Shown piece by piece: positions 7,880 to 59,951 of a stretch of 59,951 bases of DNA (within the stretch, counting starts at the first letter, position 1; each line of letters opens with the position of its first letter). A program made the position numbers and the translations under genes. Below the pieces are notes generated by a model, which was given only the letters and a program-made list of their open reading frames with translations, made no database searches and was not told the DNA's origin. The stretch is from assembly GCF_003334335.1 (NCBI RefSeq), contig NZ_QOWQ01000031.1. One strand, written 5' to 3'. This stretch comes from Escherichia coli. Its GTDB lineage: Bacteria; Pseudomonadota; Gammaproteobacteria; Enterobacterales; Enterobacteriaceae.

Positions 7880-9241
<1,362 letters not shown>

Positions 9242-9380
9242 AACGTGAGGAAATACCTGGATTTTTCCTGGTTATTTTGCCGCAGGTCAGCGTATCGTGA
9301 ACATCTTTTCCAGTGTTCAGTAGGGTGCCTTGCACGGTAATTATGTCACTGGTTATTAACCAATTTTTCCTGGGGGATAA

Positions 9381-10520
9381 ATGAGCGCGGGAAGCCCAAA
9401 ATTCACCGTTCGCCGCATTGCGGCTTTGTCACTGGTTTCGCTATGGCTGGCAGGCTGTTCTGACACTTCAAATCCACCGGCACCGGTCAGCTCCGTTAAT
9501 GGCAATGCGCCTGCAAATACTAATTCTGGTATGTTGATTACGCCGCCGCCGAAAATGGGGACGACGTCTACAGCGCAGCAACCGCAAATTCAGCCGGTAC
9601 AGCAGCCACAAATTCAGGCTACTCAACAACCGCAAATCCAGCCAGTGCAGCCAGTAGCTCAGCAGCCGGTACAGATGGAAAACGGACGCATCGTCTATAA
9701 CCGTCAGTATGGGAACATTCCGAAAGGCAGTTATAGCGGCAGTACCTATACCGTGAAAAAAGGCGACACACTTTTCTATATCGCCTGGATTACTGGCAAC
9801 GATTTCCGTGACCTTGCTCAGCGCAACAATATTCAGGCACCATACGCGCTGAACGTTGGTCAGACCTTGCAGGTGGGTAATGCTTCCGGTACGCCAATCA
9901 CTGGCGGAAATGCCATTACCCAGGCCGACGCAGCAGAGCAAGGAGTTGTGATCAAGCCTGCACAAAATTCCACCGTTGCTGTTGCGTCGCAACCGACAAT
10001 TACGTATTCTGAATCTTCGGGTGAACAGAGTGCTAACAAAATGTTGCCGAACAACAAGCCAGCTGCGACCACGGTCACAGCGCCTGTAACGGTACCAACA
10101 GCAAGCACAACCGAGCCAACTGTCAGCAGTACATCAACCAGTACGCCTATCTCCACCTGGCGCTGGCCGACTGAGGGCAAAGTGATCGAAACCTTTGGCG
10201 CTTCTGAGGGGGGCAACAAGGGGATTGATATCGCAGGCAGCAAAGGACAGGCAATTATCGCGACCGCAGATGGCCGCGTTGTTTATGCTGGTAACGCGCT
10301 GCGCGGCTACGGTAATCTGATTATCATCAAACATAATGATGATTACCTGAGTGCCTACGCCCATAACGACACAATGCTGGTCCGGGAACAACAAGAAGTG
10401 AAGGCGGGGCAAAAAATAGCAACCATGGGTAGCACCGGAACCAGTTCAACACGCTTGCATTTTGAAATTCGTTACAAGGGGAAATCCGTAAACCCGCTGC
10501 GTTATTTGCCGCAGCGATAA
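9381..10520 (+). CDS. nlpD: Lipoprotein NlpD (LysM domain plus degenerate M23 peptidase domain)
   Basis: 379-aa ORF with lipoprotein signal (LAGCS), Q/P-rich repeats and a C-terminal M23-like domain. The main rpoS promoter is known to lie inside this gene; not mapped here. Confidence 0.9.
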
Positions 10521-10582
10521 ATCGGCGGAACCAGGCTTTTGCTTGAATGTTCCGTCAAGGGATCACGGGTAGGAGCCACCTT

Positions 10583-11598
10583 ATGAGTCAGAATACGCTG
10601 AAAGTTCATGATTTAAATGAAGATGCGGAATTTGATGAGAACGGAGTTGAGGTTTTTGACGAAAAGGCCTTAGTAGAAGAGGAACCCAGTGATAACGATT
10701 TGGCCGAAGAGGAACTGTTATCGCAGGGAGCCACACAGCGTGTGTTGGACGCGACTCAGCTTTACCTTGGTGAGATTGGTTATTCACCACTGTTAACGGC
10801 CGAAGAAGAAGTTTATTTTGCGCGTCGCGCACTGCGTGGAGATGTCGCCTCTCGCCGCCGGATGATCGAGAGTAACTTGCGTCTGGTGGTAAAAATTGCC
10901 CGCCGTTATGGCAATCGTGGTCTGGCGTTGCTGGACCTTATCGAAGAGGGCAACCTGGGGCTGATCCGCGCGGTAGAGAAGTTTGACCCGGAACGTGGTT
11001 TCCGCTTCTCAACATACGCAACCTGGTGGATTCGCCAGACGATTGAACGGGCGATTATGAACCAAACCCGTACTATTCGTTTGCCGATTCACATCGTAAA
11101 GGAGCTGAACGTTTACCTGCGAACCGCACGTGAGTTTACCTGCGAACCGCACGTGAGTTGTCCCATAAGCTGGACCATGAACCAAGTGCGGAAGAGATCG
11201 CAGAGCAACTGGATAAGCCAGTTGATGACGTCAGCCGTATGCTTCGTCTTAACGAGCGCATTACCTCGGTAGACACCCCGCTGGGTGGTGATTCCGAAAA
11301 AGCGTTGCTGGACATCCTGGCCGATGAAAAAGAGAACGGTCCGGAAGATACCACGCAAGATGACGATATGAAGCAGAGCATCGTCAAATGGCTGTTCGAG
11401 CTGAACGCCAAACAGCGTGAAGTGCTGGCACGTCGATTCGGTTTGCTGGGGTACGAAGCGGCAACACTGGAAGATGTAGGTCGTGAAATTGGCCTCACCC
11501 GTGAACGTGTTCGCCAGATTCAGGTTGAAGGCCTGCGCCGTTTGCGTGAAATCCTGCAAACGCAGGGGCTGAATATCGAAGCGCTGTTCCGCGAGTAA
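10583..11598 (+). pseudogene. rpoS: rpoS (sigma-S) disrupted by a 23-bp tandem duplication causing a frameshift
   Basis: ATG at 10583 after an AGGAG RBS. ORF1 (to 11272) carries sigma regions 1.2-2 and then 45 out-of-frame residues. ORF2 (11158..11598) carries regions 3.2-4 in a different frame. The span is 1016 bp, i.e. 993 + 23. Confidence 0.85.
11112..11157 (+). repeat. Perfect 23-bp tandem duplication (TTTACCTGCGAACCGCACGTGAG x2) inside rpoS
   Basis: Copies at 11112-11134 and 11135-11157, flanked by a GTT microhomology. Confidence 0.9.
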
Positions 11599-11615
11599 GT
11601 AAGCATCTGTCAGAA

Positions 11616-11646
11616 AGGCCAGTCTCAAGCGAGGCTGGCCTTTTCT
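11616..11646 (+). terminator. Rho-independent terminator downstream of rpoS
   Basis: GC-rich hairpin (AGGCCAG...CTGGCCT) followed by TTTTCT. Confidence 0.6.
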
Positions 11647-11659
11647 GTGCACAATAAAA

Positions 11660-11687
11660 GGTCCGATGCCCATCGGACCTTTTTATT
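11660..11687. terminator. Bidirectional hairpin terminator between convergent rpoS and ygbN
   Basis: GGTCCGATG-CCC-ATCGGACC stem flanked by an A-run upstream and a T-run downstream. Confidence 0.6.
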
Positions 11688-11691
11688 AAGG

Positions 11692-13056
11692 TCAAATTAC
11701 CGCCCATACGCACCAGGTAATTAAGAATCCGGTAAAACCGAGAATGGTCGTTAACACTGTCCAGGTTTTCAGACCGTCTGCTACCGATAACCCCAGATAT
11801 TTGGTCACAATCCAGAACCCTGAGTCATTAATATGTGACGCACCAAGCCCACCAAAGCAGGCTGCCAGCGTCACCAATACGCACTGAATCGGATTCAATC
11901 CCATCACCGCTTCTGAGAGTAACCCGCCGGTTGTCAGTATTGCTACGGTTGCTGACCCCTGCGATGCACGCAGCGCCAGTGAAATAATAAATGCGGCTGG
12001 TAACAGAGGCAGGTCAATCATTTGTAGCATGTTGGCAAGGGCTTTGCCGACGCCCGATTCCACCAGCACTTTGCCAAATACCCCTCCAGCACCAGTAACC
12101 AAAATCACTACCGCCGCAGTAGGAAGCGCTGAGCCCATAATGTCGCTGGTGTGTTGTAAGCTCCAGCCGCGACGTAAAGCCAATAACCAGAATGCCAGCA
12201 CCAGCGCAATCATTAGAGCTACCATTGGTGAGCCGATCAGCTGTAGCGTACCAAGCAGGGGATGCGAAGGCGGCATCAGTGTTGCGGAAACCGTACCCGC
12301 CATGATAATCGCGATAGGAATAACAATTAGCGAGGTGACCAGCGCGACGCCCGGTGGATTTATTTTATCGCTTAATTTTGTCGCGCCTTCCTCACTGGCC
12401 GGAGCCAGTTGCATCTGTTCCAGTACTTCTACTGACATCGCATATTGGCGCTTATTGATTATTTTCGCTGCAAAGTAGCCAACAACCCCTACGGGAATAG
12501 AAATCGCAATACCGATGATGGTTAGCCAGCCGATGTCTGCGTGGAGTAACCCCGCTGCGGCGACAGGGCCTGGATGCGGCGGTACCGCCACGTGAACAGT
12601 GAGCATGATCCCAGCGACAGGCAGGCCAAATTTGAGTGGCGATATTTTGGCAACCTTGGCAAAACCGTAAATGATTGGCGCAAGAATAATAAAGCCGACA
12701 TCAAAGAAGACGGGAATACCGAGGAAGAACGCTGCCAGAGTCAGCGCAGCGATAGTTCGTTTGTCACCTAACTTGCGACTGAAATAATTAGCCAGTGACT
12801 CTGCACCACCAGAGTGTTCGATCATACGCCCCAGCATAGCGCCCAGACCAATAATAATAGTGACGGAACCAAGCACACCGCCCATCCCGGCGATCATCAC
12901 TTTACCCACTTCGCCCGCCGGTATACCCGCCGCAAGTGCGACTAACAGGCTGACGAGGAGCAGAGCAACGAATGGTTGTACCTTTGCCTTGATGGCCAGC
13001 AGCAACAGCATGATTACGCCAGTTAACGCAATGCATAACAATGTAATTGTGGACAT
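11692..13056 (-). CDS. ygbN: GntP-family acid-sugar:H+ symporter
   Basis: 454-aa polytopic membrane ORF; last gene of the ygbJKLMN cluster. Confidence 0.85.
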   Translation of the reverse strand: MSTITLLCIALTGVIMLLLLAIKAKVQPFVALLLVSLLVALAAGIPAGEVGKVMIAGMGGVLGSVTIIIGLGAMLGRMIEHSGGAESLANYFSRKLGDKRTIAALTLAAFFLGIPVFFDVGFIILAPIIYGFAKVAKISPLKFGLPVAGIMLTVHVAVPPHPGPVAAAGLLHADIGWLTIIGIAISIPVGVVGYFAAKIINKRQYAMSVEVLEQMQLAPASEEGATKLSDKINPPGVALVTSLIVIPIAIIMAGTVSATLMPPSHPLLGTLQLIGSPMVALMIALVLAFWLLALRRGWSLQHTSDIMGSALPTAAVVILVTGAGGVFGKVLVESGVGKALANMLQMIDLPLLPAAFIISLALRASQGSATVAILTTGGLLSEAVMGLNPIQCVLVTLAACFGGLGASHINDSGFWIVTKYLGLSVADGLKTWTVLTTILGFTGFLITWCVWAVI

Positions 13057-13144
13057 GGGAAACCCTGTCTGAAAGTTATAGTTAACCTACCCCATCCGTA
13101 GATGGGGGGATGTATGGGTACGTTGTAATTAGGGATTTAACGAA

Positions 13145-13921
13145 TTAGCGCCAGGCGTCAAACCAGCCAAGCCCTTCTTCGGTGAGGCCACGAGGTTTAT
13201 ATTCACAACCGATCCAGCCCTGATATCCCACCTCATCGAACAGGCGGAACAGCCACGGATAGTTGATTTCTCCATCGTCCGGTTCATGTCGATCAGGTAG
13301 TCCGGCAATTTGTACGTGCGCATATTTCCCGGCGTAGTCGCGGATTAAATGCGTCAGGTTGCCATCTACTTTTTGCGCATGAAAAGTATCTAGTTGAATA
13401 AACACGTTATCTCGCGCAACTTCTTCAACAATAGCCAGTGCCTGATACTGGCTGGAGAAGAGATAATGAGGCTTAACGCCGGGGCTGAGTGCTTCAACTA
13501 ATATTCGCTTGCCGTGTGGCGCAAAGCGGTCGGCAGCGTAGCGGAGATTATCGATAAATACTGCCCGGTACCGTTCAGCATCTTCGCCAGCGGGCACGAC
13601 GCCTGCCATCACATGGACTTGTTCACAATTGAGCGCCAATGCATATTCCAGTGCCAGGTCGATGTCTGCGTGTGCTTCGTGCTCACGTCCGGGAAGGGCG
13701 GATAATCCCCATTCCCCCGCATTAATATCTCCGGGAGCGGTATTGAACAGCGCCAGTGTCAGATGGTTTTGCTCCAGTTGCTTTTGGATTTGCAGGGTGG
13801 AGTAGTCATAGGGAAACAGAAATTCCACAGCATCGAACCCGGCTTTTCGCGCTGCGGCGAAGCGTTCAATAAAAGGCACTTCGGTGAACATCATGGATAA
13901 ATTAGCTGCAAAACGAGGCAT
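13145..13921 (-). CDS. ygbM: 2-oxo-tetronate isomerase (hydroxypyruvate-isomerase-like TIM barrel; OtnI)
   Basis: 258-aa ORF; xylose-isomerase-like fold family; conserved synteny. Confidence 0.8.
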
Positions 13922-13925
13922 TGCA

Positions 13926-14564
13926 TTAACTCCTTAATTCCGCAATTTCACCTGCGGTCAGATAACGGATCGGGCGGTCACCGAGAATAAAAATCAGCTT
14001 TGCCGTTTCCTCCAGCTCTTCCATATTGTTGGCGGCTTCTTGCAGGCTTTCACCGCAAACCACTGGGCCATGATTTGCCAGTAAAAAAGCCTGATTGTCT
14101 GCTGCCAGTTCCGCCAGATCCTGTGCGATGCGTTTATCGCCCGGTCGGTAATAAGGCACCAGCGGGACATTTCCCATCCGCATCACCACGTATGGTGTGA
14201 ACGGACGAATAACGTTGCTGCTGTCCAGCCCTTGCAGGCAGGAAAGCGCCGTCGACCATGTGCTGTGCAAATGCACCACCGCTTTACAACGCGGATTGTT
14301 GCGATACAGCGCCAGATGAAAGAGCACCTCTTTCGAGGGTTTGTCACCACTTAACCATTCGCCATCCGCGGCGACTTTGGAAAGCCGCTGCGGATCGAGA
14401 TTGCCCAGGCATGAACCTGTCGGTGTCGCCAGTAAATTCCCGTCAGGTAAAAGCAGCGACAGATTGCCAGCCGAACCGGTTGCATAGCCGCGCTGAAAGA
14501 ATGAACTGGCAATCCGCGTCATCTCCTCTCGCAAAGACTGCTCTACTTTTGCGAAATCGCTCAT
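13926..14564 (-). CDS. ygbL: 3-oxo-tetronate 4-phosphate decarboxylase (class II aldolase/adducin family; OtnC)
   Basis: 212-aa ORF; class II aldolase family. Confidence 0.8.
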
Positions 14565-59512: not shown

Positions 59513-59605
59513 GGTGAGGTGGCCGAGAGGCTGAAGGCGCTCCCCTGCTAAGGGAGTATGCGGTCAAAAGCTGCATCCGGGGTTCGAATCCCCGCCTCAC
59601 CGCCA
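59513..59605 (+). tRNA. serV: tRNA-Ser (anticodon GCU)
   Basis: GGTGAGG/CCTCACC acceptor stem, long variable arm, T-arm GGTTCGAATCC, 3' GCCA; anticodon loop CTGCTAA. Confidence 0.9.
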
Positions 59606-59608
59606 TTT

Positions 59609-59685
59609 GCATCCGTAGCTCAGCTGGATAGAGTACTCGGCTACGAACCGAGCGGTCGGAGGTTCGAATCCTCCCGGATGCACCA
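59609..59685 (+). tRNA. argV: tRNA-Arg (anticodon ACG)
   Basis: GCATCCG/CGGATGC acceptor stem, anticodon loop CTACGAA, T-arm GGTTCGAATCC, 3' ACCA. Starts 3 bp after tRNA-Ser. Confidence 0.9.
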
Positions 59686-59800
59686 TATTCTACGTACTTT
59701 CAGCGATGAAGGTATGGAAGAGGTGGCGGTAATAACCGCAGGCACCAGGGAGGATAACGTTGCTTTAGCAACGGCCCGAAGGGCGAGCCGCAAGGCGAGT

Positions 59801-59819
59801 AATCCTCCCGGATGCACCA
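59801..59819 (+). repeat. 19-nt direct copy of the tRNA-Arg 3' end (AATCCTCCCGGATGCACCA) in the inter-tRNA spacer
   Basis: Identical to 59667-59685 (T-arm 3' half, acceptor 3' strand and CCA). Confidence 0.85.
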
Positions 59820-59883
59820 TCTCTTACTTGATACGGCTTTAGTAGCGGTATCAAAAAATCTGCAGTAAAGTAAGTTTCCCGAT

Positions 59884-59951
59884 GCATCCGTAGCTCAGCT
59901 GGATAGAGTACTCGGCTACGAACCGAGCGGTCGGAGGTTCGAATCCTCCCG
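59884..59951 (+). tRNA. argY: tRNA-Arg (anticodon ACG), 3' end cut by window edge
   Basis: Identical to the first 68 nt of the tRNA-Arg at 59609. Confidence 0.85.

Follow-up and report, generated by a model that had tools for sequence, protein, structure and literature searches.

The rpoS gene of this Escherichia coli strain is interrupted by a perfect 23-bp tandem duplication. The allele is very probably a spontaneous loss-of-function mutation of recent date, private to the strain and produced by slippage-type duplication, with a null effect predicted. The stretch of DNA analysed here, referred to as the window, is 59,951 nt long and contains 49 annotated genes that were checked; rpoS is the only broken one among them, and the other 48, including mutS, are intact. 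In the remaining 10 kb of the window, full-length ORFs were found for srlDBEA, mltB, pncC, recA, recX and alaS.

The identification of the disrupted gene as rpoS, proposed in an earlier note on this DNA, is borne out by synteny and by the profile score of the translation from which one copy of the repeat was deleted. The gene order pcm-nlpD-rpoS-ygbN is colinear with that of the annotated genomes ML35 and NCTC9041, with rpoS convergent to ygbN, and the same order surrounds rpoS on a Logan contig (SRR3824134) that carries the duplication. Deletion of positions 11135–11157 gives a 330-aa protein, which scores 604.6 bits against the RpoS equivalog model NF004207 of NCBIfam (cut-off 394) and 480.7 bits against TIGR02394 (cut-off 378.7). 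Sigma-S chains of solved holoenzymes in the PDB, for example 5ipl_F and 6omf_F, are nearly the same in sequence as the restored protein. Judged by its sequence, the gene at 10583–11598 is a disrupted member of the RpoS (sigma-S, sigma-38) family. Codon 33 reads GAG on translation, as had been noted earlier.

A substitution was seen in the rpoS gene of NCTC9041, which has a G (position 11175 of the NCTC9041 record) where the window (position 11198) and ML35 have a T, changing Ile198 to Ser by codon numbering. The annotated RpoS accessions differ between the two genomes, being WP_000081564.1 in NCTC9041 and WP_000081550.1 in ML35. The Ile198Ser change of NCTC9041 may be another storage-associated rpoS variant.

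The coordinates of the locus, the repeat and the two resulting reading frames are given in Table 1. TRF reports a single array with a period of 23, 2.1 copies, 100% matches and no indels, and the unit has only its two tandem occurrences in the window, even when two mismatches are allowed. The array consists of two units plus three bases because the trinucleotide GTT both precedes the first copy and trails the second; the microhomology is exactly 3 bp, the outer flanking bases being different. The novel junction joins CACGTGAG directly to TTTACCTG. None of 100 dinucleotide-preserving shuffles of the sequence contained the duplicated pattern, and the chance expectation of a perfect 23-nt tandem pair in 59,951 nt is ~8.5e-10. 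Both the perfect tandem pair and the GTT microhomology bounding it had been claimed in the earlier note; the repeat search, TRF and the shuffles confirm the former, and the latter holds at its exact length of 3 bp. In an alignment with rpoS of ML35 the allele shows a clean 23-base insertion and is otherwise the same. By its coordinates the allele may be named c.532_554dup (3′-most register), p.Leu185PhefsTer46.

Table 1. Positions of the rpoS locus, its tandem duplication and the resulting reading frames in the window.
Feature	Position	Strand	Description
rpoS locus as present	10583–11598	+	1,016 nt, i.e. 993 nt plus the 23-nt duplication
ORF actually encoded, 229 aa	10583–11272	+	RpoS residues 1–184 followed by 45 out-of-frame residues; stop TAG at 11270–11272
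23-bp unit, copy 1	11112–11134	+	TTTACCTGCGAACCGCACGTGAG
23-bp unit, copy 2	11135–11157	+	Identical to copy 1; extra relative to wild type; register ambiguous by 3 nt
Full repeat array with GTT microhomology	11111–11159	+	GTT at 11111–11113, 11134–11136 and 11157–11159
Stranded coding sequence, RpoS residues 185–330	11158–11598	+	In another frame; TTG-started 146-aa ORF; profile positions 185–329

The single-copy state is found in ML35, in NCTC9041 and in the top matches listed among 5,408 matching genomes, where 151 nt of the query align with 128 nt of the record. The 151-nt query is by itself non-discriminating, as wild-type genomes match it in two overlapping pieces of 100% identity. A junction-specific 44-mer gave no match in 5,426 complete RefSeq genomes of E. 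coli; in an offline control, this query survived the low-complexity filter, matched the window and gave no match to the wild type. A 30-nt junction pattern likewise had no match in the GTDB species representatives or in the JGI metagenome contigs. Over positions 9000–14000, 5,001 nt of the query correspond to 4,978 nt of the record at 99.5% identity in many complete genomes, and the 23 bases are the sole difference from many phylogroup-A-like genomes across the 5 kb around rpoS. Compared with NCTC9041 across 50 kb, the window shows eight SNPs and one indel, the latter being the rpoS duplication. Among complete genomes, those nearest to the window are phylogroup-A-like (ML35, NCTC9041, CFS3292, FORC 064 and others), and the allele is present in none of them. 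As one copy has not yet diverged from the other and the allele is found in no relative, we infer that it is recent and private to the strain or culture.

Several further differences from these relatives lie elsewhere in the window. Six of the eight SNPs relative to NCTC9041 change an amino acid, one in rpoS and five outside it; from NCTC9041 to the window, the latter are R321G in iap (position 593), V21A in ygbN (12995), R42S in hycG (34071), A214T in ascF (37995) and P219S in norV (45028). In ML35 the aldolase gene ygbL is shortened by an IS1-flanked insertion (7904–10978 of the ML35 record), the cargo of which comprises a gene of the CDP-glycerol glycerophosphotransferase family and a hypothetical gene, whereas the window keeps an uninterrupted ygbL-otnK-ltnD arrangement. 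At its start the window has ~76 nt matching the end of the IS4-like element IS421, followed by the iap-proximal CRISPR array (both within 1–438), in which six repeats of GTGTTCCCCGCGCCAGCGGGGATAAACCG with a 61-nt period occupy positions 100–438. The junction of IS421 with the CRISPR array is 100% identical in many phylogroup-A-like genomes, FORC 064 and CFS3292 among them. The 3′ end (59513–59951) extends ~250 nt beyond tRNA-Ser(GCT) and tRNA-Arg(ACG) and lies near a tRNA-Arg cluster, and the matching stretch of NCTC9041 has three annotated tRNA-Arg genes. That both ends lie at or near repeated DNA suggests that a short-read draft assembly produced the window as one complete contig.

How might the duplication have arisen? 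The wild-type gene contains two GTT trinucleotides at a spacing of 23 nt, and we propose that the nascent strand slipped from one to the other as the DNA was replicated, so that the 23 nt in question would have been copied twice. It is the 3-bp microhomology by itself that points to slippage. The features expected of a slippage-type duplication are all found: the copies stand head to tail, close relatives have one copy only, and the unit is bounded by microhomology. When the wild-type and duplicated segments were folded as DNA on both strands, neither did better than shuffled sequences (z-scores 0.13 to −1.01); with no notable hairpin potential in the unit, a structural driver of slippage was rejected. 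The mutant would most likely have been selected in a stored or starved culture or on a poor carbon source, and selection in a host is also possible.

Two perfect adjacent copies can be deleted exactly, so rare revertants would be expected under stress selection, and exact reversion to wild type by slippage or by unequal sister-strand exchange is plausible. This raises the question of whether duplication and collapse might together form an ON/OFF device for the stress response, which would keep mixtures of rpoS− and rpoS+ cells as a form of bet-hedging, in the manner of a contingency locus. In favour of this, exact deletion could act on the perfect adjacent copies, and the window has an intact recA; the chromosomal tract of 15-bp repeats in tolA of E. 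coli contracts at ~7e-5 (PMC3477136), and reversible mutations of a global regulator are known in Staphylococcus aureus agr (PMC6686034). We nevertheless consider such a switch improbable. In the wild-type gene there is no repeat tract but just 3 bp of microhomology, and no structure-forming potential was seen in the unit. The tolA tract has 13 copies, and an array of only two should collapse far less often; the open literature searched gave no deletion rate for a two-copy repeat of ~20 bp, only that of the multi-copy tolA tract. One agr duplication allele yielded no revertants (PMC6686034), and the spectrum of rpoS null alleles in the databases consists mostly of lesions that are irreversible, among them nonsense mutations and 1-bp deletions. 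The same junction does not recur in independent strains (no matches among the 5,426 complete genomes, the GTDB representatives and the JGI metagenomes); its lack of matches in these collections speaks against a recurrent, evolved switch at the site. It is just as doubtful that the duplication is a practically reversible OFF state, in which a small standing fraction of exact single-copy revertants would outgrow the rest once acid, oxidative stress or starvation set in, although in that case the loss of rpoS in the lineage of the strain would be a bet-hedging state and not a dead end. A private loss-of-function mutation is the reading we prefer.

Such a reading presupposes that the second copy is real. 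A genome with a single copy, in which the extra 23-mer was made by the assembler or by a chimera in the library, would be in keeping with the likeness of the window to a short-read draft contig, ending at the IS421/CRISPR array and near the tRNA-Arg cluster, and with the absence of the junction from all other genomes searched. However, the exact 229-aa product is recorded on two Logan contigs. One of them, contig 155 of SRR3824134 (30,738 nt), belongs to a separate assembly with different ends and is 100% identical to window positions 583–21272 over 20,690 nt, duplication included; the other, of 35,387 nt, encodes the same product. A normal short read is longer than the 46-nt array, and a novel junction would enter a k-mer assembly only by way of reads, which makes an artefact unlikely. 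The rest of the window is clean as well, with only the eight SNPs relative to NCTC9041 over 50 kb and with the other annotated genes that were checked intact. The worry about assembly error is thus largely answered by the identical duplication in the SRR3824134 assembly together with the product of the second contig: the duplication was present in the DNA of the organism and not in one assembly alone, although the two Logan contigs and the window may not come from independent cultures. An artefact is accordingly very hard to sustain, and the material that was sequenced does carry the allele.

The start codon of rpoS is the ATG at 10583, and the wild-type frame is kept through Glu184, beyond which the aberrant tail runs FTCEPHV...SALPR. 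Translation thus agrees with the previous reading of a frame lost after codon 184, followed by 45 aberrant residues and the stop listed in Table 1. The 229-aa product scores 351.4 bits on NF004207 and the 146-aa C-terminal ORF 241.8 bits, both under the cut-off of 394. In the restored protein, Pfam places region 1.2 at residues 56–88, region 2 at 94–163, region 3 at 174–248 and region 4 at 262–315, whereas the encoded product retains Sigma70_r1_2 (56–88) and Sigma70_r2 (94–163) only and lacks the full domain set of a group-2 sigma factor. The break falls 11 residues into region 3, and therefore nearly all of region 3 (3.0/3.1/3.2) is lost together with region 4. The earlier note had placed regions 3.2–4 downstream and out of frame; the change of frame stands, but by the Pfam boundaries the loss is larger, taking in nearly the whole of region 3.

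Records of the exact 146-aa ORF (MSHKLDHE...) exist for 487 contigs, and several records from E. coli, Salmonella and Raoultella give it the name RpoS. Given this number, it may be common for a frameshift or stop to lie upstream of codon 185 and for gene callers to emit the same fragment each time.

The sigma-3.2 linker and the contacts of region 4 with the beta-flap and the −35 element are needed for a productive holoenzyme. A fragment without them would form no productive holoenzyme, and from the established structure and function of sigma factors the strain should be RpoS-null. The +23 insertion throws translation out of frame after Glu184, within region 3, and ends it 45 codons later. With a promoter and long leader identical to those of wild-type genomes, rpoS probably continues to be transcribed and regulated; no gene on its strand follows that polarity could affect. 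The predicted phenotype comprises absence of the HPII catalase, poor glycogen staining, absence of the rdar morphotype and weaker survival of acid, of oxidative stress and of stationary phase, with better nutrient scavenging as the predicted gain of the SPANC/GASP trade-off. Sigma-S lacking region 4 alone is said to keep some activity in vitro, as reportedly found by Gowrishankar et al. in 2003. By analogy, the truncated RpoS may have trace activity, but the truncation removes far more than region 4.

Might function be recovered by other means, either through translational frame recovery or through two halves that reassemble on core polymerase after a restart at TTG 11158 or ATG 11239? The downstream frame does encode exactly RpoS residues 185–330, termination-reinitiation is conceivable as the aberrant frame stops ~30 nt past ATG 11239, and SigO-RsoA of Bacillus subtilis is a natural two-subunit sigma factor. 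Nevertheless, this is the least credible of the alternatives, since the four restart candidates (TTG 11158, ATG 11239, TTG 11305 and ATG 11368) all lack a preceding Shine-Dalgarno-like motif, no slippery heptamer of the form X XXY YYZ lies in the translated frame at 11090–11272, the protein is split within a folded domain, region 3 (Pfam 174–248), and not in a linker, and for a comparable allele, the 5-bp duplication of CFT073, loss of function has been reported (PMC3573659). Frame recovery and restart were rejected as unsupported by the searches for these two motifs, and with the split in a folded domain a null allele is to be expected.

Taken as a whole, this is a genuine but ordinary strain-specific rpoS knockout, unsurprising to specialists and raising no new question. 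Recurrent, short-lived inactivation of rpoS is well documented, and the allele is one further example, of which only the type of lesion is slightly unusual. Users of the strain should expect RpoS-null behaviour, namely an HPII-negative, stress-sensitive and rdar-negative strain that would be a better scavenger, so that phenotypes measured on it will not represent the lineage. Annotation pipelines will either treat this rpoS as a pseudogene or report it as two separate ORFs. As a perfect tandem duplication can revert exactly, the allele would also be a convenient natural substrate for the study of duplication collapse and of selection for or against sigma-S.

The recurrence of rpoS null alleles, which the earlier note gave as established, has ample support in the literature (PMC2700278, PMC7845604, PMC10401003, PMC3573659) and in the clusters of RpoS fragments. 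Selection on succinate gives rpoS nulls, duplications among them (PMC2700278). Loss of rpoS is frequent among laboratory-stored strains, and over 60,472 genomes the gene shows many low-frequency deleterious variants (PMC10401003); independent rpoS lesions also emerge within single infections and are selected within patients (PMC7845604). In protein clusters at 90% identity, the N-terminal fragment has 299 members and the C-terminal ORF 523; the members listed for the N-terminal cluster bear mostly distinct lesions, with truncations at 170, 191, 194 and 197 and frameshift prefixes ending at 182–193. A study by Bleibtreu et al. from 2014 is said to be among the works on null or attenuated rpoS alleles. 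Like generic rpoS nulls, the present allele is a private, low-frequency inactivating lesion; the rest of the genome is ordinary, and loss of the gene is repeatedly favoured by short-term selection. Unlike most catalogued lesions, which are point mutations, 1-bp indels or deletions, a perfect duplication is less common and can revert exactly. A 23-bp duplication in rpoS was not found described in the literature searched, nor was SRR3824134, and the allele looks like an undescribed one of a thoroughly described kind.

Three known systems invite a closer comparison. The rpoS819 allele lies at the extreme 3′ end of the gene, replaces the last few residues only and is attenuated rather than null. 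According to the passage of PMC7858067 that cites Zambrano et al. 1993, rpoS819 is a GASP allele with a 46-bp duplication; it resembles the present allele as a tandem duplication in rpoS, and there the mutation was selected in starved cultures, the reduced sigma-S activity improving scavenging. In contrast, the break is here at residue 184 of 330 with region 3 and region 4 lost, and a null is expected; an attenuated allele of the rpoS819 type would keep regions 1–4 and change the extreme C-terminus, which is not what was found. As in the agr variants of S. aureus, a global regulator is turned off through a repeat-type mutation that can be restored exactly. In agr, a different regulator in a different organism, reversion was shown experimentally (a poly(A) tract, and a duplication plus inversion; PMC6686034), whereas for this rpoS allele it is a possibility. 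The third comparison is with CFT073, of which the sequenced stock carries a 5-bp rpoS duplication giving a truncated, non-functional sigma-S, the original isolate being wild type (PMC3573659, Hryckowian and Welch 2013). That allele is a duplication of 5 bp in a B2 UPEC background and was tested phenotypically; the one described here has 23 bp, lies at another position of the gene and in another background, and its effect is predicted. Both are nonetheless the same kind of event, a short tandem duplication in rpoS that shifts the frame and truncates sigma-S.
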